DNA of 64,000 bases, from IMG/VR virus record IMGVR_UViG_3300017766_003100, positions 154,388 to 218,387 of that record; one strand, given 5' to 3'. Below are positions 42,685 through 63,791 of the stretch, in pieces. The stretch is from a virus. Lineage: Duplodnaviria; Caudoviricetes. A program made the position numbers and the translations under genes. Each line of letters opens with the position of its first letter. The stretch's first letter is position 1. Below the pieces are notes generated by a model. It saw nothing but the letters and a program-made list of their open reading frames with translations. It was not told the DNA's origin and ran no database searches.

Positions 42685-43386
42685 ATGGGAAAAAATAAAT
42701 TAAAGTTTGTGATGGACACAGATTGGATATTTGATGGAGTCATAGACGCAGAACAGAAACAATATGTTTTATTAGGTTATTTCCAAAAATTGAATAAACA
42801 ATTGGAAGAAATGAAAGTCTATCCTATGTTTACTGAAATAACACTACATCTTGCTAATGTCCAAAACATCATCAAAAATAATAAAATATTATATACAGAT
42901 AAGAAACTCACCAGTTATGATGATGAGTTAACTTTTATTGATTTAAAAACAAAAGATTTACCTCCACTCAAAGTCACCGAATTAAACGAACTCAAAACTA
43001 TATTACAATATAGTTTATCCAAACTCCAAGATTACTTTGATATTATTAAATCAATATGGACAGTTGTTTATGATTCAATAGAAATAGTATCGATATATAA
43101 TGAAGATAACATTGGTTCTAAGAAAGGTTATTTCTATACCAAATCTAGTCAAATAATAAAGATTTGGGAGTACAATATCAGAAAGTACAAGGGCTATGAT
43201 AAGTTCAATATTGTAGAAAAATTTGGGGATGATTTATTAAAACATATACACTCATCCGATAATACACTACCAGCATTTTATCTTCATTGTGAAAAAGACA
43301 TACCAATGGAAGAAACTTTAATTCCATTATTCAAGAGAAAGGTTATGTCATATGTATTACAGACAAAAAACTTAACAATAAGGTAA
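42685..43386 (+). CDS. hypothetical protein
   Basis: 233-aa ORF behind a TATTTTTG element. Confidence 0.75.
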   Translation: MGKNKLKFVMDTDWIFDGVIDAEQKQYVLLGYFQKLNKQLEEMKVYPMFTEITLHLANVQNIIKNNKILYTDKKLTSYDDELTFIDLKTKDLPPLKVTELNELKTILQYSLSKLQDYFDIIKSIWTVVYDSIEIVSIYNEDNIGSKKGYFYTKSSQIIKIWEYNIRKYKGYDKFNIVEKFGDDLLKHIHSSDNTLPAFYLHCEKDIPMEETLIPLFKRKVMSYVLQTKNLTIR

Positions 43387-43388
43387 TA
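43370..43388 (+). promoter_or_regulatory. shared operator-like box, copy 1
   Basis: ACTTAACAATAAGGTAATA; TATAAT at 43424. Confidence 0.7.
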
Positions 43389-43456
43389 TTGAAATTTGGT
43401 TTTATTAACAAACTAAGATTATATATAATCAGTTAATAAACCAAAAAAATTATTTT

Positions 43457-44719
43457 ATGAAAAAAGTTTTATTTTTATTCATTGTATTAGCAACAATTTT
43501 AACATCTTGTGGAACAAAAGATAAATGTGTTGATACAATATGTCCAAATGGACAAATTTGTGTTGATGGCACTTGTCAAGGTATATCAACAAATGTTATT
43601 ATCACATCAAACATTACAACAAACACAACTTGGACATCCGACAACATCTATGAATTGGCTGGAAGAATTACCATCACAAATGGTGCAACACTCACAATTG
43701 AACCAGGAACGATTATTAAAGGACAAGCTGGTACAGGTTCAAATGCAACTGCCTTATTAGTATCAAGAGGTTCTAAATTAATCGCAGAAGGAACATCAAA
43801 CCTACCAATCATCTTTACATCTGTTGCGGATGAAATCACATTGGAACAAGTAAGAAATGGTAACTTCGTAAGTCCAAATTTAGACCCAACTTCACAAGGT
43901 TTATGGGGAGGTGTGATTATTCTAGGTTATGCTCCAATATCAGCCTCAGCATCTGAAGTTCAAATTGAGGGAATACCAACGACTGATTTAAATGGTTTAT
44001 ATGGTGGTAATAATCCAAATGACAATTCTGGTGTATTAAAATATGTTTCGATTAGACACGGAGGTGCAAATATTGGAAATGGAAATGAAATCAATGGTTT
44101 AACATTGGGCGGTGTTGGTTCATCAACAATAGTTGAAAATATTGAAATTGTTGGAAACCAAGATGATGGTATTGAATTCTTTGGTGGTAATGTAAATGTT
44201 ACTAATCTTATTGTTTGGTATTCAGGTGATGATGCAATTGATACTGACCAATCTTGGGGTGGAACATTAAATAATTTCATTGTAATATGTGGGAATGCCA
44301 CAGACCACGCATTAGAAATTGATGGTCCTGAAGGTACTTATTTAGCTTCAAATACAATTAAAAATGGTTCAGTTAAAGGTAGTAGTGAAGCTGAATTGGG
44401 TGATTTTAGAGCTTGTCCAAGAGGAAGTTTTGAAAATATTTTCTTCTTTGATTTTCCAGACCCATCAATTAGTGGAAGAGGTGATTTATCAATATCAAAT
44501 CCAACAAATTCTACATGTTCTATAGATAATTTAACTAACGGAGTTTTGACTTTTTCTAATTTACAAGTTATACTTCCTACAAATGTCTTATTGAGTAACG
44601 TGTTCAAAAATGGAACAAGTTCATATGCAACCAATGTAACTAATAGAAGTATTGGTGCAAACAAAACAATATTCAATTGGACTTGGTCGGAACAAGCAAA
44701 TCAGTTATTAGAGTTTTAA
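43457..44719 (+). CDS. Bacteroidota-type surface lipoprotein (Cys-rich EGF-like N-terminus, Gly-rich beta-helix)
   Basis: ILTSC lipobox; CVDTICPNGQICVDGTC; WGGVIILG, DNSGVLKYVSIRHGG, EINGLTLGGVG, QDDGIEFFGG. Confidence 0.85.
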   Translation: MKKVLFLFIVLATILTSCGTKDKCVDTICPNGQICVDGTCQGISTNVIITSNITTNTTWTSDNIYELAGRITITNGATLTIEPGTIIKGQAGTGSNATALLVSRGSKLIAEGTSNLPIIFTSVADEITLEQVRNGNFVSPNLDPTSQGLWGGVIILGYAPISASASEVQIEGIPTTDLNGLYGGNNPNDNSGVLKYVSIRHGGANIGNGNEINGLTLGGVGSSTIVENIEIVGNQDDGIEFFGGNVNVTNLIVWYSGDDAIDTDQSWGGTLNNFIVICGNATDHALEIDGPEGTYLASNTIKNGSVKGSSEAELGDFRACPRGSFENIFFFDFPDPSISGRGDLSISNPTNSTCSIDNLTNGVLTFSNLQVILPTNVLLSNVFKNGTSSYATNVTNRSIGANKTIFNWTWSEQANQLLEF

Positions 44720-44739: not shown

Positions 44740-44770
44740 AAGGTTCTGACAAAAGTTAGAACCTTTTTTT
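44740..44770 (+). terminator. intrinsic terminator after lipoprotein
   Basis: AAGGTTCTGAC/GTTAGAACCTT plus T-tract. Confidence 0.85.
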
Positions 44771-44793
44771 ATTTACTAAAATCTAATAATCAT

Positions 44794-45236: not shown

Positions 45237-46307
45237 ATGAACGTACTGAGTCTTTTTGATGGGATGAGTTGTGGACAAATCGCATTGAATCGTGTTGGGA
45301 TTAAATATGAAAATTATTATGCTTCTGAGGTAGATAAACATAGTATCAAAGTAACCCAACACAACTATCCTAACACGATTCAATTGGGAGATATTACACA
45401 AATAAATGGAAGTGATTTACCAACAATTACATTGATGTGTGGTGGGTCACCCTGTCAAAATCTTTCATTTGCTGGTAAAATGAAAGGGATGTCAACAAAA
45501 GAAGATATTGAAATATTAACATTAGAACAGTATCTTAAATTAAAAGATGAAGGTTTTGAATTTCAAGGACAATCATATTTGTTTTGGGAATATGTAAGGC
45601 TATTAAAAGAAGTTAAACCAAAATATTTTTTATTGGAGAATGTTAAAATGTTAAAAAAATGGGAAACCATAATAAGTAATGTCTTGGGATTAGAACCGAT
45701 TGAAATAAATTCAACCTTGGTTTCAGCCCAAAACAGAAGAAGATTATATTGGACAAACATTCCAAATATTAATCAACCAATTGACAAAGGAATTACTTTA
45801 AAAGATATCATTGTTGATGACTCTTGTAATATGACTATTGATGAAAAAATAGATTCATTAACTAAGTCTTATGGTAACCCTATAACCATTAATGAAGATG
45901 GTATTGTAACACTATATGCGAATAATGGAAAAAGAGTTAATATAGATTTATCCAACGAAGTACCATTTTCATTTTATGAAACTAGAACTAAGGAGGGTAA
46001 AGAAATGAGGAGAAAAATAAGAATTGAAACTGGTAGAGATTCAACTCCAAGGAGTAAAGAATTTAAGATGTATGCACCAAATAAAAATAACAAAGGTAAT
46101 TGTTTAGTAACTGTTGAAAGTCCTTTAGATTTTATTGTTGACTCAACTTGGAAATACAGAAAACTTTACCGAATTGAAATGGAAAGACTACAAACAATAC
46201 CTAATGGATATACTAATGTTGTAAGTGATAGTCAAGCAAGAAAGATGTTAGGTAACGGATGGACAGTTGATGTAATAACACATATATTTAAAAACATAGA
46301 ATTATGA
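45237..46307 (+). CDS. dcm: C5-cytosine DNA methyltransferase
   Basis: SLFDGMSCG, GGSPCQ, LENV, QNRRRLYW, LGNGW. Confidence 0.95.
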   Translation: MNVLSLFDGMSCGQIALNRVGIKYENYYASEVDKHSIKVTQHNYPNTIQLGDITQINGSDLPTITLMCGGSPCQNLSFAGKMKGMSTKEDIEILTLEQYLKLKDEGFEFQGQSYLFWEYVRLLKEVKPKYFLLENVKMLKKWETIISNVLGLEPIEINSTLVSAQNRRRLYWTNIPNINQPIDKGITLKDIIVDDSCNMTIDEKIDSLTKSYGNPITINEDGIVTLYANNGKRVNIDLSNEVPFSFYETRTKEGKEMRRKIRIETGRDSTPRSKEFKMYAPNKNNKGNCLVTVESPLDFIVDSTWKYRKLYRIEMERLQTIPNGYTNVVSDSQARKMLGNGWTVDVITHIFKNIEL

Positions 46308-46666
46308 ATAAGATTTTTTTGATTGATATTGATGGAACAATATGCGAAGATATTAACAATGAAGATTCCCATTTATTTCCATTTGCATTACACTTTGAAG
46401 ATAGTAGATTACTATTAAATAAGTGGTATGATGAAGGAAACATTATAACTTTTTTTACCGCAAGAGAGTCAAAAGATAGACATATTACGGAAGATTGGTT
46501 AAGATTGAAAGGATTCAAATTCCACGGACTAATAATGGATAAACCAAGATGTAAGGATGGTCAAGAATATCATTGGATTGATAATAGACCAGTCAAAGCA
46601 ACAACTTACAAAGGTACTTGGAGTGAATTAATAAAAACAGAAACAAAAATAGAAGTGTTTAAATGA
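46304..46666 (+). CDS. small HAD-family phosphatase
   Basis: DIDGT motif I, FFTAR motif II, IMDKPR, WIDN. Confidence 0.85.
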   Translation: MNKIFLIDIDGTICEDINNEDSHLFPFALHFEDSRLLLNKWYDEGNIITFFTARESKDRHITEDWLRLKGFKFHGLIMDKPRCKDGQEYHWIDNRPVKATTYKGTWSELIKTETKIEVFK

Positions 46667-47496
46667 ATGTATTAAGTTTGTTTGATGGGTTAAGTTGTGG
46701 TCAAATTGCCCTAAATAGAATTGGCATAAAATATGATAAGTATTTTGCATCCGAGATTGATAAAAGTTCAATTAAGGTTACACAACAAAATTATCCCAAC
46801 ACAATTCAATTGGGGGATATAACGGAAATTAAAGGAAGTGATTTACCACCAATCGACCTTCTTATAGGTGGGTCACCTTGCCAAGGATTCTCAAAGGTAG
46901 GGAAACAATTGAATTTCGATGACCCAAGGAGTAAATTATTCTTTGAGTATGTTAGACTATTAAAAGAAACAAATCCAAAGTATTTTTTATTGGAGAATGT
47001 TGTAATGAGAGAAGAATGGAAAGATGTAATCACTGAACATCTTGGTGTGAAACCAATTAAGATTAATAGTAGATTAGTTTCAGCACAAAATAGACCAAGG
47101 TTGTATTGGACAAATATTCCAAATATAACACAACCAAAAGATTTGGGATTAAATATTTGTGATGTTATCACTCCAGACTTTAAGGACAAATATCCAAACT
47201 ATTTAGATTTACCATTCTATGGTAGGGGAACAAGAAAGGATGTTGTTAAGTCATATAGAGACAAGGCATCTTGTTTAACGGCATCAATGTATAAAGGACA
47301 GGTTTCATCTTTTTGTAAAAATGAATTGGGTCAGATATACAAATATACACCACAAGATTGTGAACTATTACAAACAGTACCATTAAATTATACAAGGGGA
47401 GTCTCAAACACCGAAAGGTTTAAATTACTTGGGAATGGATGGACTGTAGATGTGATATCACATATTTTTAAAAATATGAAAGAAGGGTCAAATTAG
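46663..47496 (+). CDS. dcm: C5-cytosine DNA methyltransferase, paralog of 45237
   Basis: SLFDGLSCG, GGSPCQ, LENV, QNRPRLYW, LGNGW. Confidence 0.95.
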   Translation: MNVLSLFDGLSCGQIALNRIGIKYDKYFASEIDKSSIKVTQQNYPNTIQLGDITEIKGSDLPPIDLLIGGSPCQGFSKVGKQLNFDDPRSKLFFEYVRLLKETNPKYFLLENVVMREEWKDVITEHLGVKPIKINSRLVSAQNRPRLYWTNIPNITQPKDLGLNICDVITPDFKDKYPNYLDLPFYGRGTRKDVVKSYRDKASCLTASMYKGQVSSFCKNELGQIYKYTPQDCELLQTVPLNYTRGVSNTERFKLLGNGWTVDVISHIFKNMKEGSN

Positions 47497-48529: not shown

Positions 48530-50035
48530 ATGAAAAAATCACACAAAATGGTCCTGATTGAAAGTGGAATAAGAGATATTAATTCTCTTGCTCTTCGCTA
48601 CAAAAAAGCGAAGGTCTACTTTCATCAGGACCTTTGACTGGATGGAGTTACATCTGCATTAGGAATGAAAAAATACTTGGAAGATAATGGTATCAAAGTA
48701 GTTGATGCTGAAGTCATCCAATATGGTGACCAAGAATGGGCAATAAAGAAACCCGAAGCAAGTGGTGGAGTTATGCCTGTGTTGGTTGACTTTGCTCACG
48801 GAAAACCAATGTTTTTGATTCACACAGACCACCACGATTCACAATCAGGTGTTGAGGGTGATACGTCAACAAGTTTCAAAAGTGCGAGGTCTAATGTTGA
48901 AACAATATCAGGTATATTATCACCAAAAGATTTGTTTCCATCAGGAGATATTAAATTAATTTCAACTGTGGATTCGGCCAACTTTAGGGTTATGGGAATT
49001 TCAATTGATGATGTTAACAATTATATCTTTAATCTTGATAAAGGTTTACCTGTAGAAAAAAATAAAATGTTGATGGGATTAGTTACCAACAAATTATTAT
49101 TAGCATTTAAGAACAAAAAAGGATTTTTAGAAAGATTAGTTTTAGAGTGTGAGCCTTCATTGATTAGTATTCTCAACAAGATAAAACAAATTATGAAAGA
49201 AGAAGGTTGGTCAGGTGTTGAAGATTTACAGATGAATAGGGAGAAGTATATTGAACAGATGAGAGGTTATGGTAAACAATCATATGAAGATGGCATCATT
49301 ATTAAAGATGGTGGTGGAAGTATGATAAAACCTGGTTCATATGATAGATATGTGAGTTTTAAATTATATCCTGATGCTGATTTTCAAGTTATTACTTGGG
49401 GTTCTGTTGGACTTTTACAAGTTTCTTGTAATCCTTTTAAGGAACAACGAGGACTAAAAGGAATTGATTTGGGGGAAATAAATAGAGGCATTCTTGAAGG
49501 AAGAAAGAGTGAATTGGAACAAATTAAAATTACTGCAAATAGATTAAAAAAAGTTGCTGAGACTAGTAAAAAATTCGTACCTGGTGAGAGTGTTGGATTT
49601 ACGGCAAAAGACCTAGTAGCATTTTATGGTAATAGTATAAAAGGGTATAATGAAATACCAAGAAAGTTTGAAAACTTTTTATCAAAGAAATATCCTGATT
49701 ATGAAAGAGGATTAGAAGAATGGAAAAAAATTGTTAGTAAAACAATGAGTAAACCTTATGTTGAATTAAGTGAATTTGAATTGGCTGTATTAGATTCTAT
49801 TTATACAACTGCTTATGATGTAATCAAGAACAATAGTGGCGGACACAAATGTATTACTAATTTCCAAACATCAGCATTAGGTGGTGGTTTTGGTCCTTAC
49901 AAAACAACTGATTTTATTAAAGAAATAAAAGATGAGTTTGTTCAAATTCTAAAAGACAGAATTAATGCCGAGAAAGGGGACAATGTAAACGAAAACTATT
50001 TTAGGGGTATTATTAAAAAAGTAATGAAAGGTTAA
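48530..50035 (+). CDS. DHH-family phosphoesterase with an in-frame TGA at 48635-48637
   Basis: ATG 48530 is in frame with the track ORF at 48665 and reads YFHQDL*LDGVTSALGMK; VLVDFAH, TDHHD (DHH) and TVDSA follow. Confidence 0.8.
48550..48632 (+). promoter_or_regulatory. three-way-junction RNA structure inside the DHH coding region
   Basis: P1 48550-48568 pairs with 48615-48632 (18 bp, 1 bulge); P2 AAGAGA/TCTCTT; P3 CTTCGCT/AGCGAAG. Confidence 0.75.
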
Positions 50036-50411: not shown

Positions 50412-50798
50412 ATGGGAAATTGTGCAGGTATTTTATTAAAATATAAAAATCATTGTTTATTATGTAAAAGAAGTCAAAAAGGGAGTTTACCAGGTATTTG
50501 GTCAGTTCCTGGAGGACATTTGGAGAAAGGTGAAAGTATTCAAGATGGTGCTGTAAGGGAGTTTAGGGAAGAGACAGGATATCAGATTGTTGATAACTTG
50601 GATTATGTGGCAACATTGAATGGTGGGTCAAAAATGAAATTCTATTTGTTCTTATATGAGATTGATAAAAAGATAAATATTGATTTGGATGAAGCAATTG
50701 ATGGTAGTGAACACGATGAATGTGGTTGGTATACCAAAAAAACTTTACCTAAAAAGGTAGAAAATCAACTTTTTTTTATAATAAATAAGATTTTTTGA
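50412..50798 (+). CDS. NUDIX hydrolase
   Basis: WSVPGGHLEKGESIQDGAVREFREETG Nudix box; EHDECGW. Confidence 0.95.
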   Translation: MGNCAGILLKYKNHCLLCKRSQKGSLPGIWSVPGGHLEKGESIQDGAVREFREETGYQIVDNLDYVATLNGGSKMKFYLFLYEIDKKINIDLDEAIDGSEHDECGWYTKKTLPKKVENQLFFIINKIF

Positions 50799-54177: not shown

Positions 54178-54210
54178 AATCCCCACCATAAAAAGTGGGG
54201 TTTTATTTTT
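54178..54210 (+). terminator. intrinsic terminator
   Basis: CCCCAC/GTGGGG plus T-tract. Confidence 0.75.
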
Positions 54211-54242
54211 GTGGGTTAATAGGTATAAAGACAGAATCTTTA

Positions 54243-54250
54243 ATATTTAT
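54243..54250 (+). promoter_or_regulatory. putative late promoter
   Basis: ATATTTAT upstream of 54270. Confidence 0.65.
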
Positions 54251-54269
54251 AGTTTATAGAAAAAATATT

Positions 54270-55997
54270 ATGTCATTAATTAATCAAAAGAAAATAATAC
54301 AATTATTAAAAGAGTATAACTCCAAACATAGTGATATTCTTACTGAATCCAAACTTAAAGTATTGATAGATAAGATTGGAATGTCGGAAGAAAATGCAAA
54401 AATACTTGATGATAAGTTCGGTCCTTTATCAGTATGGATGGCTAAAAAAATAGGTGAATATTATTCCAAAAATTTTCCAAATGATTATCGTACACCTCAA
54501 GAAGCATTAAAAGGATTGTTTTTTAGAACCAATTATTGGATAACTCAATTTTCATCAATCAAAGATTACATTGTTGTTGGATTAAATGGAAATAAGTCAT
54601 CTTTGGATAATTTGAATTATTCGGAAATTTATAACAAATCCAAAGAATGGCACGATAGTTTGAATGTTGGTGATAGTAAAATAAATTATATTGAAAACAA
54701 TCCAATCCTAATTGATTTTAGGAATGAAAATGGTACAGGGTATTATTGGGCTGACCTACAAACGAATAATTCCACTGAAGAGTGTGAAAGGATGGGACAT
54801 TGTGGAAGAAGTTCTTCTGGGTCATTATATTCATTAAGGAGCTATAGATTTACACCAGATGGAAAGTATAAGGTTAATGATAGTCATTTAACAGCATCAA
54901 TAAGTAATGATGGGATAATATACCAATTAAAAGGTCCTAAGAACTCAAAACCAAAAGAAGAATATCATAAATTCATTTTACCTTTATTTGATTTACAAGA
55001 TGAAGATGATGATTATTTCATCAAAGGATTTGGAACTGAATATGCTTCACAACAAGATTTCAAATTAGAAGATTTACCAATACAAACACTCAAAGATTTG
55101 TATGAAATTAGACCTGAAATATTCAAATCAAGAGGGTTAAAAAGTAAAATGGCTGAATTGGGAATTGAAATAGAAGTTGAACCATTACCAACAGATTTTT
55201 ATGTGGAAATAGAGTTTGATTCTATACATTATTATATTGATAATGATGAAGTAATTTACACCACAAAAAACCAAAGTAGTAATCCTTATAGTTCAAGGCA
55301 TGTGGTGAATAAAACATACTTATCACAAGCTCTTTTAGACCGCAACAAATTTGATGAATTATATGAATGGATTAGTGAAGAATATTCATTACCTAGTTAT
55401 AAAGAACCATCATTAGAAAAAGTTTTAAAAGAAAATGTTTATGGTGGATTAAGGTCACATATGATAAGATTATTAAAAATGATGAAACCAACTGAAGAAC
55501 AATTAAAACAATTGGAAGAAGTTGAAAAGATTACAGAATGGAGTTTACAAATATCAAGACTGGCTAATTTAATAAGAGAAATTGATACCAGAAATTTAAT
55601 TATTAATTATATTTACGAAGTTTATCACAATTGTTATCGTGATAGTATAGCTGATTCGGCAATTGGAAAATTAAAAGAATCTTTATTAACTACACTTGAA
55701 GGTTATGGTTCAGTTATTTGGAATGATTATGGAGTTGATATTAGTATTGATATTGAAGGTGATATTGGAGAACTTGTTGATATTGATGACCCAGAAGTTA
55801 TTGAAGTATATGATAGAATAGAAGAAGATTATGGTGACTTTTCTACCTCCGATGTATTTAAAGAGTTAGTTGGTAGAGACATTATATCAAAACCTTATTG
55901 GGGAAGACCTGATATAGATGAAGTTGATATTGACAATGATTACTTCAATGAACAACTAAATGACAGCTTAAATTATATTGAAAGATACCATTTATGA
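54270..55997 (+). CDS. tagged protein with PcfJ-like domain, paralog A (start revised)
   Basis: EECERMGHCG...YSLR...QLKGPKNSKP; late-type motif at 54243. Confidence 0.75.
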   Translation: MSLINQKKIIQLLKEYNSKHSDILTESKLKVLIDKIGMSEENAKILDDKFGPLSVWMAKKIGEYYSKNFPNDYRTPQEALKGLFFRTNYWITQFSSIKDYIVVGLNGNKSSLDNLNYSEIYNKSKEWHDSLNVGDSKINYIENNPILIDFRNENGTGYYWADLQTNNSTEECERMGHCGRSSSGSLYSLRSYRFTPDGKYKVNDSHLTASISNDGIIYQLKGPKNSKPKEEYHKFILPLFDLQDEDDDYFIKGFGTEYASQQDFKLEDLPIQTLKDLYEIRPEIFKSRGLKSKMAELGIEIEVEPLPTDFYVEIEFDSIHYYIDNDEVIYTTKNQSSNPYSSRHVVNKTYLSQALLDRNKFDELYEWISEEYSLPSYKEPSLEKVLKENVYGGLRSHMIRLLKMMKPTEEQLKQLEEVEKITEWSLQISRLANLIREIDTRNLIINYIYEVYHNCYRDSIADSAIGKLKESLLTTLEGYGSVIWNDYGVDISIDIEGDIGELVDIDDPEVIEVYDRIEEDYGDFSTSDVFKELVGRDIISKPYWGRPDIDEVDIDNDYFNEQLNDSLNYIERYHL

Positions 55998-57634
55998 AAT
56001 TAAAAGAAAAATATTACCATAAAAAAATCCTAAATTTATTAAAGGAATATAATGATAATTTTGGATTGTTGAATGAATCCAAAAAAGAAATCCTAATGGA
56101 TAAGTTGGGATTAAGTCCAAATATAGCTGAAGTATTCGATGAAGTTTGTGGAAAATTAGCAATATGGTTGGCTAACAAATATCTAAAATATTATTATGAA
56201 GATAATAAAACTAAGTCAAACCCTGGTGTTGCACATAAAGATATGTTAAAATGGGCACAGCATCGTATAAATTCAATGACCACATCTACACTCAGAAGAG
56301 TATTACCTGGAATAATGGATTATATCCGAGTAGGATTAAATGGTAACAAAAGTAGTTTGGATGATTTATCAATAGTACAAATTGCTTCACTATCAACTCA
56401 ATGGCACGACCAACTAAATGTTGGTCAAGGTAAGATAAATTATATTGAAAATGCTCCAATCCTAATTGATTTTAGAAATGAAGATGGTGAAGGATATTAT
56501 TGGGCTGACCTAAATGTTAAAAACTCACCTGAAGAATGTGAGAGAATGGGACATTGTGGAAGAAGTTCTTATGGTTATCTATATTCATTAAGAAGTGATA
56601 GAGTTTTACCAGGAGGAAAATATAAGTTAAATAGAAGTCATTTAACTGCTGCAATTGGAAGTAATGGGATATTATATCAATTAAAAGGTCCTAAGAACTC
56701 AAAACCAAAAGAAGAATATCATCAATATATCGAACCTTTATTCTATACTTTAGGTGGTGGAGGAGAAGAAGAGGATTATTTAATCCAAGGTTTTGGAACT
56801 GAATATGGTGCTGACCAAGATTTCAAGTTATCTGATTTACCTGATGTAACAATTAGAAAAATATATAACGATAGACCTAAATTATTTAATACAAGAGGTT
56901 TAAAAAGAAAGTTGGGTAAGATGGGTATTATTGATTTTGAACCTACCCAAACAAAATTTGTTTTGGAACTATCAGCAAATGAGCTTGGAACATATTTACA
57001 GGGTGATACTTATTCAACTCGTAGATATAAAAATAGTGAGGGTAAAGAGATGGTTAAAAGAGAAAGTTGGTATGAACAAATAATGTCCGATTCAATTTGG
57101 GATGATGTTTGGCATATGGATTGGGGAAGTGATTGGAAATCAGCACTTGATTACTATGTAAACCCTGAAAATGAAAAATTAATTGAGTCAATCATTAACG
57201 AATGGATTAGTAAAAGTGGTGATGAAGTTGATGAAGATATATCTTTGGAGGAAAAAATAGAACAATATGATAATAATGACGATATCCGTAACGCTTTGAG
57301 TTCAACAGAAAACGATATTGCTGGTAATGAATATGTTGATTATTTAAGAGACACCTTAAAATCAGCTTTAGAAGAATATGGTAGTGTATTTGAATTCAGT
57401 GATGAGACAATTAAGATACAAATTGATTTGAAAGATTATACTAATAATATTGATGAGGACACTCTTGATGAATACTATGAGAATTGTTATGATAATCCTA
57501 GTTGTGTATTTAATGAATTATTAAGTGAAGGAAGTATTGATTTTCCAAAACCTAGTTTCAATGACAATTGGTATCCTGATATAGATAGACATATATATAA
57601 TCAATATTTAACAGATAGATTAAACGAAATATAA
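55994..57634 (+). CDS. tagged protein with PcfJ-like domain, paralog B
   Basis: Same YYWADL...EECERMGHCGRSS...YSLR...QLKGPKNSKPKEEYH block. Confidence 0.75.
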   Translation: MKLKEKYYHKKILNLLKEYNDNFGLLNESKKEILMDKLGLSPNIAEVFDEVCGKLAIWLANKYLKYYYEDNKTKSNPGVAHKDMLKWAQHRINSMTTSTLRRVLPGIMDYIRVGLNGNKSSLDDLSIVQIASLSTQWHDQLNVGQGKINYIENAPILIDFRNEDGEGYYWADLNVKNSPEECERMGHCGRSSYGYLYSLRSDRVLPGGKYKLNRSHLTAAIGSNGILYQLKGPKNSKPKEEYHQYIEPLFYTLGGGGEEEDYLIQGFGTEYGADQDFKLSDLPDVTIRKIYNDRPKLFNTRGLKRKLGKMGIIDFEPTQTKFVLELSANELGTYLQGDTYSTRRYKNSEGKEMVKRESWYEQIMSDSIWDDVWHMDWGSDWKSALDYYVNPENEKLIESIINEWISKSGDEVDEDISLEEKIEQYDNNDDIRNALSSTENDIAGNEYVDYLRDTLKSALEEYGSVFEFSDETIKIQIDLKDYTNNIDEDTLDEYYENCYDNPSCVFNELLSEGSIDFPKPSFNDNWYPDIDRHIYNQYLTDRLNEI

Positions 57635-57635
57635 A

Positions 57636-58229
57636 ATGAAAATAATAATAACAGAAAGTCAGTATAAACTAATATTGGAGAATGAGGAATATCTCGGACA
57701 GATTATGGAATTAATTGAAACATTTGATGAAACAAATATTGATATTGCATTCCAGATTGCAAAAGGTTTGAAGATAAAACCGAGCACAATATTGGAACAT
57801 TACAAAGAGTTATTTGAAGTTTTTAATTATAAACCAAGAATAGGAAATTTAAAAAAAATAACAAAAAAGACTATTTTAGATGTTAAGATTAGTTTATCCA
57901 AAAAAACAATTGACTTAATATTCAAATTACCAAAATTACAAATAATTACATTTTACACATTAAATGATGGTGATTTGGATGAGTTAGTAAGTACAAATAA
58001 ACAATTATTTTTTTCATCTAACTGTAAAATAACCTCATTACCTAAATTAAAAGAAGTTGGTACTCTTGAGTTAGAGGGTACAAAAATTGAATCATTACCT
58101 AATTTAATTTCAGTTGGGCGTACTTTAGGTTTAGAAAAAACCCCACTTGGAAAAGAATTAAAAGATAGTGGAATGAGTAAAGATGAAATAAAAAATAAAT
58201 TTGGAGTTAAAGGTACGTTATTTATATGA
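57636..58229 (+). CDS. tagged LRR-like protein, paralog 1
   Basis: MKIIITESQYKLILE; ITSLPKLKEVG and IESLPNLISVG repeats. Confidence 0.8.
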   Translation: MKIIITESQYKLILENEEYLGQIMELIETFDETNIDIAFQIAKGLKIKPSTILEHYKELFEVFNYKPRIGNLKKITKKTILDVKISLSKKTIDLIFKLPKLQIITFYTLNDGDLDELVSTNKQLFFSSNCKITSLPKLKEVGTLELEGTKIESLPNLISVGRTLGLEKTPLGKELKDSGMSKDEIKNKFGVKGTLFI

Positions 58230-58876
58230 AAATAATAATAACAGAAAGTCAGTATAAACTAATATTGGAAAACGAGGAATATCTCGGACAGATTATGGAA
58301 TTAATTGAAACATTTGATGAAACAAATATTGATATTGCATTCCAGATTGCAAAAGGTTTAAAGATAAAACAGAGTACAATATTGGGACATTATGAAGAAT
58401 TATTCAAACTTTTTAAATATAAACCATCAGTAATAAATTTGAAAAAAATAATAAAAAAGACTAATTTAGATGTGGATATTAACTTATCTAAAACGACAAT
58501 TGACTTAATATTCAATTTACCAAATTTGAAAACAATAAATTTTTTCAGATTAAATAGTGATTTGGATGATTTGGTTAGTACTAATAAACAATTATATATT
58601 ACAAATCGTTGTAAAATTACCTCACTACCTAATTTAATGTCAGTTGGGGATTTATATTATGCTCATTCAAAAATCACCTCCCTACCTAAATTAAAAGAAG
58701 TTGAATATGATTTAGGTTTGGATAATACAGACATTGAATCATTACCTAATTTAATTTCAGTTGGTGGTGATTTGATGTTAACTAATACACCCCTTGGAAA
58801 AGAATTAAAAGATAGTGGAATGAGTGAAGATGAAATTAAAAATAAATTTGGAGTAAAAGGTGAGTTATTTATATGA
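58226..58876 (+). CDS. tagged LRR-like protein, paralog 2 (one extra repeat)
   Basis: First 145 nt differ from paralog 1 at 3 synonymous positions. Confidence 0.8.
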   Translation: MKIIITESQYKLILENEEYLGQIMELIETFDETNIDIAFQIAKGLKIKQSTILGHYEELFKLFKYKPSVINLKKIIKKTNLDVDINLSKTTIDLIFNLPNLKTINFFRLNSDLDDLVSTNKQLYITNRCKITSLPNLMSVGDLYYAHSKITSLPKLKEVEYDLGLDNTDIESLPNLISVGGDLMLTNTPLGKELKDSGMSEDEIKNKFGVKGELFI

Positions 58877-59514
58877 AAATAATAATTAGTGAAAGTCAAC
58901 TTCGTTCAATTATCAATGAGTCAAGAATTGAAAGGAATGTTGTTAGAAAAGTAGTTAGAGATTTAACGGACATAATTAAAAGAAAAGAAGAAGGTGAATT
59001 TTATTTACCTGAAGATATTTCTTCTGAAGAAGAAATGGATTCTTATCGATTCGATGATTATGAGGTCGAATTTACAATAGAATTTAAAATTATCTACGAT
59101 GATAATTTGGACAGATTTCTTCTTAATGGAGCTTATTCAACTGATGATGATGTTGTTGAAATAATCCTTAAAGTTAATCCTGATAACTTGAAGAAACAAA
59201 TGTATGATATCATTGGTGAATTAAATATAATTATTGCTCACGAATTGGAACACGGATTACAACAATACTACGATGAATTTAATTTAAACAAGAAAAGTCC
59301 TAAAATTTCAAAGAAATATTATCAACAAGCTCACGAAATTCCAGCACAAATACAAGGATTCAAAAGACTTGCAAAATTAAAGAGACTCCCATTTGAAGAG
59401 GTGGTAAGAACTTGGTTTGAAGAAAATAAACCAATTCACAATATGAAATCAAAAGACCAAGAAGAAGTCATACAAACAATATTGAAAGCACACAAAGAAA
59501 AATATGGTAAATAA
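58873..59514 (+). CDS. tagged zincin-like metallopeptidase
   Basis: IIAHELEHGLQ (HExxH) and downstream HEIPA. Confidence 0.7.
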   Translation: MKIIISESQLRSIINESRIERNVVRKVVRDLTDIIKRKEEGEFYLPEDISSEEEMDSYRFDDYEVEFTIEFKIIYDDNLDRFLLNGAYSTDDDVVEIILKVNPDNLKKQMYDIIGELNIIIAHELEHGLQQYYDEFNLNKKSPKISKKYYQQAHEIPAQIQGFKRLAKLKRLPFEEVVRTWFEENKPIHNMKSKDQEEVIQTILKAHKEKYGK

Positions 59515-60355
59515 AAACATTATAAGAAAAATCTTGAATGAGTTCGTAAGTGAACAATTTGATGATTATGGTGATATTAAAAACGTTAAGAAATTAAAAA
59601 AAGACTGGAGAAAAGATGTTATTTCAGGTACTGAAAGAGGTATTACCAAAATCAAAACAGGATTATCAGGAAATAGTATTAACGATATTGTTAATGATTT
59701 GGTTGATAAGTTTGGTATTAAAAAAATCAAATATGCTGGAAGAGGTTATTATGGAATGGCCTTTTTAGTTGATAACAATAAGATATTGAAACTAACCCAA
59801 GACCAAGATGAAATCAAAGGGATTGAAAAAATAGTAGGGAAAGAAATACCAGGTATTGTTAATTATTATGGATACGAATTTTATCCCAAATATAACATTT
59901 ATGGTATTTTAATGGATAAAGCCAACCCAATTCCAAAAACAGAAAAAGATATTTACACAACGATGTTTTATATGGGTGCAAACTATTCTGATTCTGATTT
60001 TTGGGATGATTATGATGATGAGTTTTTGGATAATTTGGTTGATAGATTGGAAAGTCCTGAACCTGAAGATGAACTCCCACCAATTGGTATCAGTGGTTAT
60101 TATAGTAATGACGAAGATGATGAGGAAGATGAGGAGTTTGATGATGACGATGAAGACAATTATTACATACCAAAAAGAGAAAAACCAACTCCAAGTGTAA
60201 GTATAACATTTGATGAACTAATAGACTATATTGAAAAATACAGAGAGTTATTATTGAAGTTGGAAGAAAACAATATATCAACAAAAGATTTACACGGAGA
60301 AAACATTGGACAAATAAATGGAGAATTAGTCCATTTTGATGTGATGGCATTTTAA
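59504..60355 (+). CDS. tagged protein kinase-like enzyme with acidic insertion
   Basis: GRGYYG Gly loop, ILKLT, ILMDK hinge, DLHGEN catalytic loop, HFD. Confidence 0.8.
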   Translation: MVNKNIIRKILNEFVSEQFDDYGDIKNVKKLKKDWRKDVISGTERGITKIKTGLSGNSINDIVNDLVDKFGIKKIKYAGRGYYGMAFLVDNNKILKLTQDQDEIKGIEKIVGKEIPGIVNYYGYEFYPKYNIYGILMDKANPIPKTEKDIYTTMFYMGANYSDSDFWDDYDDEFLDNLVDRLESPEPEDELPPIGISGYYSNDEDDEEDEEFDDDDEDNYYIPKREKPTPSVSITFDELIDYIEKYRELLLKLEENNISTKDLHGENIGQINGELVHFDVMAF

Positions 60356-60357: not shown

Positions 60358-60376
60358 ACTTAACAATAAGTTAATA
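60358..60376 (+). promoter_or_regulatory. shared operator-like box, copy 2
   Basis: ACTTAACAATAAGTTAATA; TATGAT at 60412. Confidence 0.7.
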
Positions 60377-60434: not shown

Positions 60435-63263
60435 ATGAAAAATATCTTTCTAGTCCTATTACTCCTATTATCATTTAAATCCTTTTCACAATTTACAATC
60501 ATTGGTAAAGTTGTTGATGAAAATACAAAAGAACCTCTAATTGGTGTTACAGTTATAATCAAAGAAACTTCAGTTGGTACAACAACAGACATTGAAGGTA
60601 TATTCACAATAGACTCAGACAAAGACACTGTTACATTAGAGTTCTCATATGTCTCATATAAAAAAGAAATCCAAGAAAATATTGTATTGGTTGGTGAATT
60701 AACAACCATCCCTGATATTATTCTTAAAGAAGATGTATTAGAAACTGGTGAAGTTGTTATTACCGCAGACAGAATTGTTAAAAATGAAATTGGTCTGATT
60801 GATATGAAAATGAAATCAGTCACAATGGTTGATGGTATTAGTTCTGAGAAAATGAAATCAACTGGTGATGGTAATGCCGTTGAAGCAAGTAAACGAGTCA
60901 CTGGTGTATCAATAGATAATGGAAAATATGTTTATGTTAGAGGATTGGGTGATAGATACTCAAAGACAATAATGAATGGTGTTGAAATACCTGGGTTAGA
61001 CCCCGACAGAAACTCACTTCAAATGGATATATTCCCCACCAATTTATTAAATAATATTGTCGTATCAAAAAGTTTCTCAGCTGAATTACCAGCAGATTTT
61101 ACAGGTGGATTAATAAATATTGAAACAAAAGATATACCTGAAACACCACAAGGTTCATTTTCAATAACCACAGGATTTAATAATCAAACCCACTTCAATA
61201 ATAATTTCTTTAGTGAGAAAGGAAGTATGACTGACATATTAGGATTTGATGGTGGAATAAGAAGATTACCAAATGAACTAAGAAGTAGTTATATCCCAAC
61301 CCCATATAACAAACCATCAAGTATAAGTTCAGCACAACATCAACAGAATATTATTAATACTTTAAGAAGTTTGAATCCTGAATTGGGTGGTGTTAATGGT
61401 ATGCCATTCTTGGATTTTGGCGGTGGATTTTCTTATGGAAGAACAAATAAAAAGTTTGGTTATATTGTATCATTAAATCAAAAAACAGATTATAGATTTT
61501 ATACTAATGTAAAGTATGGTGAATACCAAAGGGTAACTGATAACTCACAATATGATTTGATTTATGCAACAAAACAATCAGGACAATTAACTGAAATTAA
61601 TAATCTATTGGGAGGTTTAGTTGGATTCAATTTTGTTAAAGGTAAGAGTAAATACAAATTAAATCTAATTCATTTACAGAGTGGTGAAAGTAGAGCTGGT
61701 AAGTTCAACATATCAAACAATTCATCAGCTGTTGGACAATCAGGTTATGATGCAACATCATATAATCTTGAATACAATCAAAGAGGATTAACCAATTTAC
61801 TATTAAGTGGAAAACACAAGATAAACAATTGGAATATTGATTGGAAATTATCCCCAACTTATTCATCATCAATTGACCCTGACATTAGAAAGACACCATT
61901 TAGTTATGATGGTTCATATTCATTCTCATCAGGTGAAGCGGGAAATCCATCAAGGATATGGAGAAACTTGGGTGAATTTAATAACCAATCAAAGATTGAT
62001 ATAAATAAAGAATATGAAAACTTCAAATTGAACTTTGGTTTATCTCACGTATATAAATTGAGAAACTATGAAATCAAGTTATTTGAATTGATGTTTTCAA
62101 AACCACAATCTTGGGCATCACCAGACCCCAATCTTGTTATGAATAGTGATAACTTATATCCATCTGATGTCAATGGAACTTATATTCAATCTGGTAATGT
62201 GAATCCAAATCCAAATCAATATTCATCAAATGTTAATAATCTTGGTGTATATGTTTCAGGTGATTATAATATCAAAAACAAGTTAAAGATTAATTTGGGG
62301 TTAAGAACTGAATACTTTATTCAAAGACATACAGGAAGAGATATAAGATATGCCAATGGTGATGTGAATGGAAACAATTTGGTTAATGATAAAGTTATGG
62401 AAACGATAAATCTATTCCCATCAACAAATATCATATATTCAATAACACCAAAACAAAATCTAAGAACATCATATTCAAGAACGATTGCGAGACCATCATT
62501 CAAGGAATTATCTTATGCTCAGATATTAGACCCAATCACAAATAGAATATTCAATGGTGGTTTATTCACATATAATGGAACTTGGGATGGAAATTTGAAA
62601 TCAACAAATATTGATAACTTGGATTTAAGATGGGAGTTATCCAATAAAAATGATTTATATTCAATATCTGGGTTTTATAAACATTTCAATAATCCAATTG
62701 AACTTGTTAGAATACCTGAACAACAAACATCAACTGAATATCAACCAAGGAATGTTGGTAATGGTGATGTGTATGGATTGGAATTTGAGTTAAGAAAATC
62801 GTTTCTAAAGAACTTTTATTTCAATACCAATGTCACACTCGTTAAGTCACAAATAACGATGACAGAGACAGAATATCAAGCAAGAAAACAATATGAAAGG
62901 TTAAATGAAAACATAGACAATACAAGAGTTATGGCAGGACAATCACCATTTGTAATCAATACTGGATTATCTTATAAGAACGATAAAATTGGGTTGAATG
63001 TTGGGTTGTTTTATAATGTTAAAGGACAAACATTATCCATTGTTGGAACTGGATTATCTCCTGATGTTTATGATGAATCATTCCATTCATTGAATCTTTC
63101 TGTAAGTCAAAAGATTAAGAATACATCAATTGATTTTAGAGTTCAAAATATTCTTAATGATAGAGTTGAGAGTTTTTATCACTCCTATAAAGCTGAGAAA
63201 CAAGTATTCAATAGTGTTAATCCTGGTGTGACTTTAACATTGGGTGTTAGTCATAAGTTCTAA
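60435..63263 (+). CDS. TonB-dependent outer membrane receptor (Bacteroidota type)
   Basis: Signal peptide; GKVVD..T.EPLIGVTV domain; plug KRVTGVSI...VRGLGDRY...NG...D.FP; RPSFKEL; C-terminal F. Confidence 0.95.
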   Translation: MKNIFLVLLLLLSFKSFSQFTIIGKVVDENTKEPLIGVTVIIKETSVGTTTDIEGIFTIDSDKDTVTLEFSYVSYKKEIQENIVLVGELTTIPDIILKEDVLETGEVVITADRIVKNEIGLIDMKMKSVTMVDGISSEKMKSTGDGNAVEASKRVTGVSIDNGKYVYVRGLGDRYSKTIMNGVEIPGLDPDRNSLQMDIFPTNLLNNIVVSKSFSAELPADFTGGLINIETKDIPETPQGSFSITTGFNNQTHFNNNFFSEKGSMTDILGFDGGIRRLPNELRSSYIPTPYNKPSSISSAQHQQNIINTLRSLNPELGGVNGMPFLDFGGGFSYGRTNKKFGYIVSLNQKTDYRFYTNVKYGEYQRVTDNSQYDLIYATKQSGQLTEINNLLGGLVGFNFVKGKSKYKLNLIHLQSGESRAGKFNISNNSSAVGQSGYDATSYNLEYNQRGLTNLLLSGKHKINNWNIDWKLSPTYSSSIDPDIRKTPFSYDGSYSFSSGEAGNPSRIWRNLGEFNNQSKIDINKEYENFKLNFGLSHVYKLRNYEIKLFELMFSKPQSWASPDPNLVMNSDNLYPSDVNGTYIQSGNVNPNPNQYSSNVNNLGVYVSGDYNIKNKLKINLGLRTEYFIQRHTGRDIRYANGDVNGNNLVNDKVMETINLFPSTNIIYSITPKQNLRTSYSRTIARPSFKELSYAQILDPITNRIFNGGLFTYNGTWDGNLKSTNIDNLDLRWELSNKNDLYSISGFYKHFNNPIELVRIPEQQTSTEYQPRNVGNGDVYGLEFELRKSFLKNFYFNTNVTLVKSQITMTETEYQARKQYERLNENIDNTRVMAGQSPFVINTGLSYKNDKIGLNVGLFYNVKGQTLSIVGTGLSPDVYDESFHSLNLSVSQKIKNTSIDFRVQNILNDRVESFYHSYKAEKQVFNSVNPGVTLTLGVSHKF

Positions 63264-63265: not shown

Positions 63266-63299
63266 AAAAACCCCACCTGATTTAGATGGGGTTTATTTT
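63266..63299. terminator. bidirectional terminator after TonB receptor
   Basis: AAACCCCA/TGGGGTTT between convergent genes. Confidence 0.8.
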
Positions 63300-63554
63300 T
63301 TATCGTCTTTTCTTTGGTTTACACCTAATATATAATTCATCAACATAATCTTGTAAATTATCCTTTTCATCATCGTCTAAATTATCATCATTATCAATAA
63401 TTTGAGTTAGTCCCTCAAGTCTTTCCTGAATCATATCCAAATTAGATTCTAGTTCTTCTAATTCCTCATTATAATCCTTCCAATACTCTTCATTGATTAC
63501 TCTTTTAACCAATCTAGTTAAATCTGTTTCTGTAAGTTTTACTATCTTTTTCAT
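63300..63554 (-). CDS. small tagged acidic protein
   Basis: MKKIVKLTETDLTRLVKRVINEE; late-type motif at 63583-63590. Confidence 0.75.
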   Translation of the reverse strand: MKKIVKLTETDLTRLVKRVINEEYWKDYNEELEELESNLDMIQERLEGLTQIIDNDDNLDDDEKDNLQDYVDELYIRCKPKKRR

Positions 63555-63678: not shown

Positions 63679-63791
63679 AGTCCTGTGGCGGAATTGGTAG
63701 ACGCACATCGGCAGGTGATTTAGTTTGAGGATACAGCGGCAGTCGAGGTCACAAACATATACAAATACAGGTTCGAATCCTGTCAGGACTA
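63679..63791 (+). tRNA. atypical 113-nt tRNA-Leu-like RNA with non-canonical enlarged central region
   Basis: Acceptor AGTCCTG/CAGGACT, Leu-type D arm GCGGAATTGGTAGACGC, T arm ACAGG-TTCGAAT-CCTGT, discriminator A; 62 nt between D and T arms without a canonical anticodon arm; no encoded CCA. Confidence 0.8.

Follow-up and report, generated by a model that had tools for sequence, protein, structure and literature searches.

A large freshwater phage carries a TonB-dependent transporter and its beta-helix lipoprotein partner, a candidate PhoB-controlled phosphorus-scavenging module from Bacteroidota

We analysed a 64-kb stretch of phage DNA (the window), which has a GC content of ~29% and ORFs lying nearly all on one strand. 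PHROG matches in the window include a primase, an exonuclease, an SbcCD-like protein, ThyX, several DNA methyltransferases and a phage sigma factor. The features discussed here are a TonB-dependent transporter (TBDT) gene, a surface lipoprotein gene, and the repeats and hairpins which flank them (Table 1).

Table 1 Features of the transporter and lipoprotein loci, with positions given in the window.
Feature	Position	Strand	Remarks
TBDT gene, 942 aa	60435..63263	+	ATG to TAA, open
TBDT signal peptide	aa 1-19
TBDT N-terminal domain	aa 20-100		CarboxypepD_reg-like
TBDT linker with TonB box	aa 106-111 (nt 60750-60767)		EVVITA
TBDT plug	aa 127-238
TBDT barrel	aa 239-942		22-strand; C-terminal Phe
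Bidirectional intrinsic-terminator hairpin	63268..63294	.	AAACCCCACCTGATTTAGATGGGGTTT; T-runs on both strands
Pho-box-like direct repeat, TBDT side	60359..60376	+	CTTAACAATAAGTTAATA (TTAACA-N5-TTAATA); 59-76 nt before TBDT start codon
Pho-box-like direct repeat, lipoprotein side	43371..43388	+	CTTAACAATAAGGTAATA; 69-86 nt before lipoprotein start codon
Surface lipoprotein partner gene, 420 aa	43457..44719	+	Lipobox LTSC (Cys18)
Lipoprotein domains			Short Cys-rich module, then right-handed parallel beta-helix (PF28492 Beta_helix_4)
Terminator-like hairpin	44742..44774	+	GGTTCT...AGAACC, then T-run; 22 nt past lipoprotein stop; read from sequence

The ORF at 60435-63263 is an intact member of the TBDT superfamily, and we found every part of the receptor which an earlier note on this DNA had listed (signal peptide, N-terminal extension, plug, barrel, terminal Phe and a terminator of its own). 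Pfam matches were CarbopepD_reg_2 (aa 23-109), Plug (PF07715, aa 127-225; 39.1 bits, cut-off 23.9), the TonB_dep_Rec barrel (PF00593, aa 430-906; 101.6 bits, cut-off 27) and OMP_b-brl_3. The N-terminus, MKNIFLVLLLLLSFKSFSQ, is signal-peptide-like and the C-terminus reads ...SHKF; the signal peptide and the C-terminal aromatic residue, a feature of outer-membrane insertion, were judged by eye. The AF2 model (mean pLDDT 86.2) consists of a beta-sandwich, a disordered linker (aa 101-114), the plug and the barrel. The predicted TonB box before the plug lies inside this linker, which is the sole low-confidence one, and corresponds in the alignment to the EVVV(T/V)A motif of the homologues. Foldseek matched the model to PfeA, PhuR, FoxA and FecA (E ~1e-24), with all solved TBDTs matched at 10-13% identity, which gives the fold class only and no clue to the substrate. 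The protein is a relative and not a member of TIGR01782 TonB-Xanth-Caul (179.7 bits, below the curated cut-off of 310), and its match to the SusC/RagA model TIGR04056 (63.6 bits vs a cut-off of 368) is limited to the N-terminal domain (aa 21-118). The terminator hairpin starts 5 nt past the TBDT stop and is common to a convergent ORF at 63300-63554.

The TBDT gene was found at the same syntenic place in 7 IMG/VR contigs from 7 metagenomes (79-99% aa identity), with conserved synteny upstream. Because the same locus was assembled in all of these, the TBDT is truly phage-borne and not part of a chimera. The nearest record is an IMG/VR contig with a CheckV completeness of 22%, and the long contigs G405-G407, which carry the lipoprotein, end 16-18 kb downstream of it. 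The flanking genes had been described as late-type, which was not borne out, as the ORFs at 54195-60355 match nothing in Pfam or PHROG. Searches of the relatives' fragments with T4 Gp23 and portal models gave nothing convincing; no capsid, portal or terminase genes were found in the window or in these fragments, and no ExbB/ExbD homologue was found in the window. The earlier note had also called a TBDT an unusual cargo for a phage: its presence in a phage stands, but two 2026 preprints already report phage TBDTs and the claim that it is unusual is accordingly weaker.

The lipoprotein was assigned to PF28492 from precomputed Pfam and Atlas results, and its beta-helix carries an invariant acidic ladder of DDGxE, DDxxDxD and ExDGxE motifs. 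Its lipobox cysteine is followed by K/D residues which may constitute a Bacteroidota-like surface export signal. A fold search returned many beta-helix enzymes, NosD and phage tailspikes at Z ~21, none of which stands out. The possibility that the protein is a tailspike-like depolymerase was ruled out by its lipobox and its orthology to the cellular TBDT partner. The lipoprotein and TBDT genes lie ~16 kb apart in the phage.

The phage carries both genes of a Bacteroidota TBDT and beta-helix lipoprotein pair, although they are not adjacent. The earlier note placed this TBDT subfamily next to lipoproteins like the one at 43457 in Bacteroidota, and this proved correct: a lipoprotein adjoins the orthologous TBDT in 34/34 Bacteroidota loci which were fetched wide and annotated, namely 14/14 in the two groups of higher identity (37-52%) and 20/20 in the 31-35% group, and these cellular TBDT-adjacent lipoproteins are 44-63% identical to the phage protein. 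For most of the other loci fetched, tblastn likewise placed the lipoprotein in the short flanking sequence. The closest cellular relatives of the phage genes have the order lipoprotein then TBDT, and loci with the reverse order (F. johnsoniae type) encode TBDTs which are 31-35% identical to that of the phage. The family was found in 71 of 401 sampled genomes. A pattern scan of genome contigs recovered homologues at 27-42% identity only and missed the closest cellular group. The neighbours of most cellular pairs are housekeeping genes (ExbB-ExbD-ExbD-ThiL-FtsH-pair-QueD-FolE2), and a neighbourhood analysis for catabolic genes found no phosphatase near most pairs. Possession of this gene pair narrows the phage host to Bacteroidota.

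A phylogeny against host copies and dN/dS estimates, both proposed in the earlier note, were carried out. The phage TBDTs are monophyletic (support 100) and nested among cellular sequences, and the phage lipoproteins fall in a clade (support 98) with lipoproteins from the same contigs as the sister TBDTs; the nearest relatives of both genes thus lie in the same lineage. The only named relatives in the sister group are Aureispira MAGs. The TBDT stem is long (0.41) and the lipoprotein stem is short, and therefore the histories of the two genes after transfer differ. Among phage copies dN/dS was 0.05-0.20 for the TBDT and 0.10-0.18 for the lipoprotein, which shows that both are under purifying selection; within a given pair of phages the dN and dS values of the two genes are almost alike (dS up to 0.9). 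All copies seen of the two genes are intact. In one close relative, G001, the lipoprotein has been cleanly deleted and the TBDT kept, so the two need not be carried together. As host-derived, intact genes which are under purifying selection across the lineage and occur in at least 7 samples, the two are candidate auxiliary metabolic genes.

The 18-bp repeat TTAACA-N5-KTAATA occurs exactly twice in the window, each time with 0 mismatches and at equivalent positions before the two genes, and an additional in-phase TTAACA is present at 43405-43410, near the lipoprotein-side repeat. In a window this AT-rich the loose form is at background (11 found vs 10.96 expected), which leaves the strict form and the 18-mer as the informative ones. 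On the TBDT side the repeat is unchanged in L002, L003 and L007, and TTAACCAAAACTTAATG occupies this position in the L004 group. On the lipoprotein side it is kept in phage relatives (79-83% aa identity) with diverged flanks, and it has decayed to TTTAGCGATAAGATAATTT in G001, where the lipoprotein gene is deleted. Upstream of the cellular pairs, the same repeat with its 11-bp period was found in 28/36 promoters (10/14 and 18/22), against an expectation of 0.0165 per 220 nt.

The context of this repeat in cells links it to phosphate. In the 4.4-Mb G389 genome, which has the gene order RR-HK-TBDT-lipoprotein-M28-PstS-PstS-PstC-PstA-PstB (phoBR-like genes, the pair, then pstSCAB), exact triple repeats are found before the TBDT and before pstS2 and nowhere else, and in G028 the pair is flanked by pstS on one side and an RR/HK pair on the other. 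PstS was found in 3/10 genomes searched, and the pstS promoters of two other genomes have degenerate versions of the repeat only. PhoX was found in 1/5 genomes searched, with no box in its promoter, and in a phylum-wide search for the PhoB family all OmpR-family regulators scored alike, with none at the cut-off, although it was this search which brought the G028 arrangement to light. The B. subtilis PhoP consensus is composed of TT(A/T/C)ACA repeats. From the presence of the repeat in the pstS promoter of one genome and its resemblance to Pho boxes, we infer that the 11-bp-period direct repeat before both phage genes is a putative PhoB-type site.

We interpret the two genes as a host-derived, PhoB-controlled phosphorus-scavenging module which encodes the halves of a Bacteroidota outer-membrane uptake unit, and give this reading a probability of roughly 0.6. 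Each gene retains upstream what looks like the host's operator for phosphate starvation, so under phosphorus scarcity an infected cell probably gathers this element on behalf of the virus. Conjectural parts of this model are the binding of PhoB, expression, assembly at the surface, formation of a complex and the substrate. The TBDT and beta-helix lipoprotein would represent a transporter and a surface “lid” or capture lipoprotein, which in cells would be a unit of the Pho response. An ancestor of the jumbo-phage lineage would have acquired the two-gene operon from a Bacteroidota host, after which the genes would have become separated by ~16 kb, each with its own copy of the host-type PhoB-like site. 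In a phosphorus-starved infected cell the host PhoB response regulator would turn on both phage genes and the products would be exported via the host Sec, Lol and BAM machinery. The lipoprotein would then capture a phosphorus-containing substrate at the cell surface, the TBDT would import it using the host TonB-ExbBD motor, and the extra phosphorus would feed replication of the ~290 kb genome.

It is possible, though unlikely, that the same uptake pair is under another OmpR-family regulator which the repeat serves, and that its cargo is not phosphorus but, for example, a metal. The invariant Asp/Glu clusters on the lipoprotein would suit such a cargo, FolE2 and QueD lie directly downstream in many cellular loci, most neighbourhoods lack a phosphatase, and the PhoX promoter lacks the box. 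However, the exact triple repeat precedes pstS, the pair is found between phoBR-like and pstSCAB genes in G389 and beside pstS in G028, and a related pair in F. johnsoniae answers to Pi limitation but shows no response when Fe or N is limiting (PMC8115612).

The earlier note had offered two roles, nutrient uptake (with organic phosphorus as an example) and receptor mimicry or superinfection exclusion; the former fits the phosphate-regulon evidence and the latter we consider improbable. Under exclusion, the phage TBDT, with or without the lipoprotein, would replace or mask the host copy and so keep competitors, or the phage's own offspring, from adsorbing to infected cells. Phages often use TBDTs as receptors and the host copy may be one, a long branch separates the phage TBDT from its cellular orthologues, and a 2026 preprint on the outer-membrane proteins of huge phages makes the case for such a role with reference to lambda Lom. 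A mask would need no working transport core, however, and the TonB box, the plug and ~100 invariant columns have been retained in the phage TBDT. Its extracellular loops are conserved to the same extent as its strands within the phage clade (0.88 vs 0.89), its phage-specific deletions fall in periplasmic turns and not in loops, and a nutrient-type control site has been kept on both genes.

We strongly disfavour the idea that the genes are a neutral passenger, or host DNA in decay, without any part in infection: the clean loss of the lipoprotein in G001 would agree with this, but both genes are intact in all copies with low dN/dS at dS up to 0.9, and the box upstream has been preserved within a spacer which otherwise diverges. 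An assembly chimera, or a cellular or mobile-element contig mistaken for phage, is barely credible despite the missing capsid, portal and terminase genes, given identical junctions assembled independently in 7 metagenomes, GC which is uniform across the TBDT gene, phage-type replication genes and a phage sigma factor in the surroundings, and contigs classed in IMG/VR with CheckV estimates.

A more specific form of the phosphorus-scavenging reading can be put forward, although we regard it as doubtful. The host operon may have been split into two units, each of which can be lost independently of the other and carries a phosphate-starvation operator copied from the host, and a TBDT without a phage lipoprotein, as in G001, may pair with the host lid; the transporter would be built to plug into host partners (TonB, lid and BAM), and under phosphorus starvation its expression could also conditionally change the receptor surface. 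Were this true, a virus-run, outer-membrane TonB-powered Pho-regulon module would have been demonstrated in Bacteroidota for the first time, and it would provide a handle on the substrate of a very widespread Bacteroidota TBDT/lid family. The split operon, the duplicated operator and the loss of one half in a sister phage amount to a natural experiment on which partner is needed. Phosphorus is often limiting for freshwater bacteria, and a ~290 kb genome is phosphorus-expensive for a very large freshwater phage. The phage genes also highlight a very common, uncharacterised family of Bacteroidota TBDTs and beta-helix lipoproteins with a control site of TTAACA repeats at 11-bp spacing.

The most similar cellular systems, likened to the phage pair by Pfam sets, fold class, gene order and Pho context, are Fjoh_0545/0546 and BT4055/4056. 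In F. johnsoniae, Fjoh_0545 (TBDT) and Fjoh_0546 (lipoprotein FII, with a pectin-lyase fold) belong to cluster PUSIV in the phoBR operon and rise by log2 8-10 upon Pi depletion (Lidbury et al. 2021, PMC8115612). BT4056 of B. thetaiotaomicron is 40% identical to Fjoh_0546 and is the predicted lid of the TBDT BT4055 (Price et al. 2023, bioRxiv 10.1101/2023.03.17.533168). These systems share with the phage the TBDT Pfam set (Plug, CarbopepD_reg_2 and OMP_b-brl_3), a neighbouring non-SusD pectin-lyase/beta-helix lipoprotein which is surface-exposed or released, and a link to phoBR and phosphate starvation. The phage pair differs in being phage-borne and 16 kb apart with a control site for each gene, and the F. 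johnsoniae type has the TBDT before the lipoprotein whereas the closest cellular relatives of the phage genes have the lipoprotein first.

SusC/SusD and PusC/PusD likewise combine a TBDT which has an N-terminal CarboxypepD_reg-like domain with a surface lipoprotein encoded beside it, but the phage TBDT fails the SusC/RagA model and its partner is a beta-helix instead of the SusD TPR fold. ElpS of Caulobacter crescentus is a phosphate-starvation-induced surface lipoprotein linked to raised alkaline phosphatase activity (PMC2996285) and is reported to be related to FI-FIII/BT4056 (Lidbury et al., PMC8115612; Price et al., bioRxiv 10.1101/2023.03.17.533168); the ElpS report describes no TBDT pairing.

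Among phages, two preprints describe beta-barrel outer-membrane proteins of huge phages, among them 22-stranded TonB-dependent receptors of Lak phages with detected transcription (bioRxiv 10.64898/2026.10.24.761521), and TBDTs in phages of ammonia oxidisers (bioRxiv 10.64898/2026.05.02.722434). As here, an intact TBDT with Bacteroidota-type homologues is carried by a large phage, but the text available gives no partner lipoprotein, Pho-type site or cellular origin operon, and favours receptor interference or the import of iron or haem.

The use of the host Pho signal by phages has so far been documented mainly in cyanophages (pstS and phoA). Zeng and Chisholm reportedly described host PhoBR control of cyanophage pstS and phoA in 2012. 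These auxiliary genes are placed under host PhoBR by Pho boxes (PMC10976474). As in the present phage, where the box is putative, a host-derived phosphorus-acquisition gene taps the starvation signal through a host-type Pho box. The present case, whose regulation is predicted from sequence, differs in belonging to Bacteroidota, in concerning two genes of one operon which were split with a duplicated box, and in acting at the outer membrane instead of through a periplasmic binding protein or phosphatase. The same logic may extend to another phylum and to another step, TonB-powered outer-membrane import with a matching surface lipoprotein.

The TonB-dependent transporter (TBDT) gene is uninterrupted and encodes a protein with a signal-peptide-like N-terminus (MKNIFLVLLLLLSFKSFSQ), a C-terminal Phe and the Pfam domains CarbopepD_reg_2 (aa 23-109), Plug (aa 127-225) and TonB-dependent receptor barrel (aa 430-906). 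Its AlphaFold2 model (56 homologues, mean pLDDT 86.2) comprises a beta-sandwich, a disordered linker (aa 101-114) with EVVITA, a plug and a large barrel, and Foldseek matched it to the solved TBDTs PfeA, PhuR, FoxA and FecA at E ~1e-24 with an identity of only 10-13%. With the terminator hairpin behind the gene, this bears out the receptor anatomy claimed in the earlier note. The protein comes near the NCBIfam model TIGR01782 but scores below its cut-off (180 bits, cut-off 310), and the SusC/RagA model aligns to its N-terminal domain only. Among ~5.8 billion proteins searched we found a close group of 942-aa proteins at 77-100% identity, beyond which identity falls to ≤ 60% with Bacteroidota proteins of 955-990 aa; an identical protein is present on a 295-kb contig.

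Coordinates of the features discussed (in the window unless another contig is named)
Feature	Position	Remarks
Small ORF, 80 aa	17816-18058	Lipoprotein signal peptide, lipobox
Small ORF, 87 aa	19845-20108	Lipoprotein signal peptide, lipobox
Phage-type RNA polymerase sigma factor	23155-23955	phrog_351, E 3e-51
Segment replaced in G001, the nearest phage relative	43329-44793	~100 bp at G001 C1:40000-40100
Box, first copy	43371-43388	69-86 nt before lipoprotein ATG
Lipoprotein ORF	43457-44719	420 aa; PF28492
Two DNA cytosine-methyltransferase-like genes around a small HAD-like ORF	45237-47496	Near-identical N-termini (MNVLSLFDG.SCGQIALNR.GIKY)
DHH phosphoesterase	48665-50035	
NUDIX-like ORF	50412-50798	
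Two tandem paralogue families, 600/546 aa and 197/216/213 aa	54195-59514	No Pfam or PHROG match
ORFs flanking the TBDT gene	54195-60355	
Box, second copy	60359-60376	59-76 nt before TBDT ATG
TBDT ORF (+)	60435-63263	942 aa, ATG to TAA
Hairpin with T-runs on both sides	63268-63294	5 nt past TBDT stop; common to small convergent ORF
Small convergent ORF	63300-63554	
tRNA-like element	63679-63791	Type-II tRNA acceptor, D and T arms; long insert replaces anticodon arm
Four-unit repeat arrays, Bacteroidota genome G389	C1:2887150-2887187, 3566421-3566458, 3034853-3034890	

One strong TBDT match each was found in 71 of 401 sampled Bacteroidota genomes, and these matches fell into three identity groups (45-54%, ~40% and 31-35%). 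From the two closer groups we took 14 loci with 20 kb around each; a lipoprotein of 410-580 aa lies directly upstream of the TBDT on the same strand in 14/14, and tblastn of these cellular lipoproteins against the window identified the lipoprotein ORF at 44-63% identity (E down to 1e-112). In the 31-35% group a homologous lipoprotein lies directly downstream of the TBDT in 20/20 loci, as it likewise does in Prevotella and Bacteroidales MAG loci. The adjacency proposed in the earlier note therefore holds, and the TBDT family is paired with a beta-helix lipoprotein family across the whole phylum. The order of the two genes is inverted between cellular lineages, and two loci (L121, L122) carry two tandem pairs. 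The pair is often embedded in a block of ExbB, a small ORF, ExbD, ExbD, ThiL-like, FtsH, the pair, QueD and FolE2 (L104-L122, L058-L061), found in 13/20 loci of the 31-35% group and 4/14 of the closer groups. The phage lipoprotein combines a lipobox (LTSC) and a short Cys-rich module with a right-handed parallel beta-helix (model pLDDT 86.8). Its structural matches (Z ~21) are spread evenly over AlgG, PL6 lyases, NosD and phage tailspikes, so that only the fold class is established. An acidic ladder (DDGxE, DDxxDxD, ExDGxE) is invariant and is likely a ligand or metal site.

The two phage genes share a putative control site. The 18-mer CTTAACAATAAGKTAATA, a Pho-box-like direct repeat, occurs in exactly two copies in the 64-kb window with 0 mismatches, one before each gene, and no further match was found in the window at up to 3 mismatches. 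Relatives with 79-83% protein identity retain the copy upstream of the lipoprotein in a spacer that has otherwise diverged; in one group of related contigs (L004), TTAACCAAAACTTAATG stands in place of the TBDT box at the same position. In cells, whichever gene of the pair comes first has a direct repeat [TG]TAA[CT]-N6-[TG]TAA[CT] within the 220 nt before it in 10/14 and 18/22 cases (background 0.0165 per 220 nt), with up to four in-phase units. We take the cellular and phage repeat to resemble the B. subtilis PhoP consensus. As the lipoprotein-TBDT spacer lacked the repeat in all 14 operons, the phage TBDT gained its own box after the genes separated. The phage also encodes a sigma factor, which suggests a promoter specificity of its own beside the host-type boxes of the two envelope genes.

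The cellular neighbourhoods link the pair to phosphate. In G389 the gene order is OmpR-family regulator, histidine kinase, TBDT, lipoprotein, M28 peptidase-like, PstS, PstS, PstC, PstA and PstB, and exact triple repeats are found in this 4.4 Mb genome only before the TBDT and before pstS2 (TTAACAATTATTTAACAATAAATTAACA). Arrays of four TTAACA-type units, matched at one mismatch, also stand upstream of two more TBDTs of the CarbopepD-Plug-barrel type (911 and 928 aa) and of a 692-aa protein with a T9SS tail; these genes are candidates for the same regulon, and the set resembles the published F. johnsoniae Pho regulon. Another Bacteroidota genome (G028) has the pair flanked by pstS on one side and by a regulator/kinase pair on the other. 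The F. johnsoniae TBDT Fjoh_0545 and lipoprotein Fjoh_0546 (FII, pectin-lyase fold) lie within the phoBR cluster and rise by log2 8-10 on phosphate depletion, with no response to N or Fe limitation (Lidbury et al., PMC8115612); Fjoh_0545 has the same Pfam set as the phage TBDT, a likeness in domain content. BT4056, 40% identical to Fjoh_0546, is the putative lid of TBDT BT4055 (Price et al., bioRxiv 10.1101/2023.03.17.533168).

We therefore favour, with a probability of about 0.6, the reading that TBDT and lipoprotein are a host-derived phosphorus-scavenging module switched on by host PhoB in starved infected cells. Host PhoB would activate both genes in the phosphorus-starved, infected cell, the lipoprotein would bind a phosphorus-containing substrate and the TBDT would take it in using host TonB-ExbBD; no ExbBD homologue was found in the window. 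It should be noted, as a caveat to the Pho link, that most cellular pairs lie within the conserved housekeeping block (ExbB-ExbD-ExbD-ThiL-FtsH-pair-QueD-FolE2). The box was absent upstream of PhoX (one promoter examined), and at two other pstS promoters the repeat is present in degenerate form only. The same pair acting under another regulator, or on a non-phosphorus cargo, is unlikely in our judgement.

When the alignment was mapped onto the TBDT model, the plug was the best-conserved part and the TonB box was retained. Within the phage clade the extracellular loops match the strands in conservation, and of the ~30 residues absent from phage TBDTs most are at periplasmic turns, including all longer gaps except one. 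On the model, this pattern is that of a working transporter and not of a surface decoy, so surface remodelling or superinfection exclusion appears somewhat less probable again. Within the phage lineage dN/dS ranges from 0.05 to 0.20 in the TBDT and from 0.10 to 0.18 in the lipoprotein, and when the same two phages are compared, both genes give near-identical dN and dS (e.g. 0.138/0.78 vs 0.139/0.79); that the genes are neutral passengers is very improbable.

The phage TBDTs form a single clade (support 100; 18 rows, 5 of them confirmed on viral contigs) with a long stem (0.41), nested within cellular sequences including Aureispira MAG proteins. In the lipoprotein tree, the phage sequences group (support 98) with the lipoproteins P0259, P0263, P0279 and L131, the last from a locus with both genes adjacent. 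The first three are very probably on the same contigs as the sister TBDTs, given matching contig sizes, which points to one lineage as the source of both phage genes; most simply, they would have been taken up as one operon. Compared with the TBDT, the lipoprotein has a much shorter stem, so either the TBDT evolved faster or intermediates on its branch are missing from the sampled sequences. More distant phages (IMG/VR contigs L095/L096 and L098-L100) carry beta-helix lipoproteins of the same family as separate acquisitions, those of L095/L096 branching beside a cellular locus (L057); no TBDT was seen on these fragments. G001, collinear with the window, encodes a TBDT of 98% identity behind an intact box but no lipoprotein; the DNA that takes the place of the cassette still contains a decayed box (TTTAGCGATAAGATAATTT). 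The lipoprotein cassette was thus ancestral at this site and lost in one lineage. The TBDT can therefore persist alone, perhaps working with the host's lipoprotein.

GC is ~29% across the whole window, TBDT gene included, nearly all ORFs are on one strand, and PHROG matches include a primase (nearest to Flavobacterium myophage 'immuto' and T4-like cyanophages), an exonuclease, SbcD- and SbcC-like nuclease subunits, ThyX, several DNA methyltransferases and the sigma factor. The methyltransferases, HAD-like, DHH and NUDIX-like genes form a nucleotide/phosphoester cluster that lies between the lipoprotein gene and the TBDT gene. The two small lipoprotein ORFs could be spanin-like or other envelope proteins. 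G001 is a 64.5-kb IMG/VR contig with a CheckV completeness of 22%, which implies a genome size of about 290 kb; the available fragments yielded neither a capsid nor a portal gene. The ORFs flanking the TBDT gene have no family match (Pfam, PHROG), so their description in the earlier note as late-type lacks support. Many of the paralogues, and the small convergent ORF, open with a similar short helix (MKIIITESQ..., MKKIVKLTETDL...). ARAGORN called zero tRNAs in the entire window. The TBDT is on 7 IMG/VR contigs from 7 different metagenomes (79-99% aa identity), and the DNA upstream of it is collinear between the window and relatives except for the paralogous ORFs at 54-59 kb, which vary in copy number and near which several contigs stop. 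The same junctions in independent assemblies rule out a chimera and confirm a phage-borne gene, leaving artefact as the least probable explanation of all.

Phage-encoded TBDTs are no longer new as such: 22-stranded TonB-dependent receptors are reported from Lak phages (bioRxiv 10.64898/2026.10.24.761521) and six TBDTs from phages of ammonia oxidisers (bioRxiv 10.64898/2026.05.02.722434), and phage use of host Pho control has a precedent in cyanophage pstS/phoA (PMC10976474). To the published work we found, our analysis adds a Bacteroidota jumbo phage that carries the transporter as well as the lipoprotein of a non-SusCD TBDT/lid unit, a split operon in which the host operator has been duplicated, the definition of this operator in cells at genome level and a sister phage which has dropped one half.
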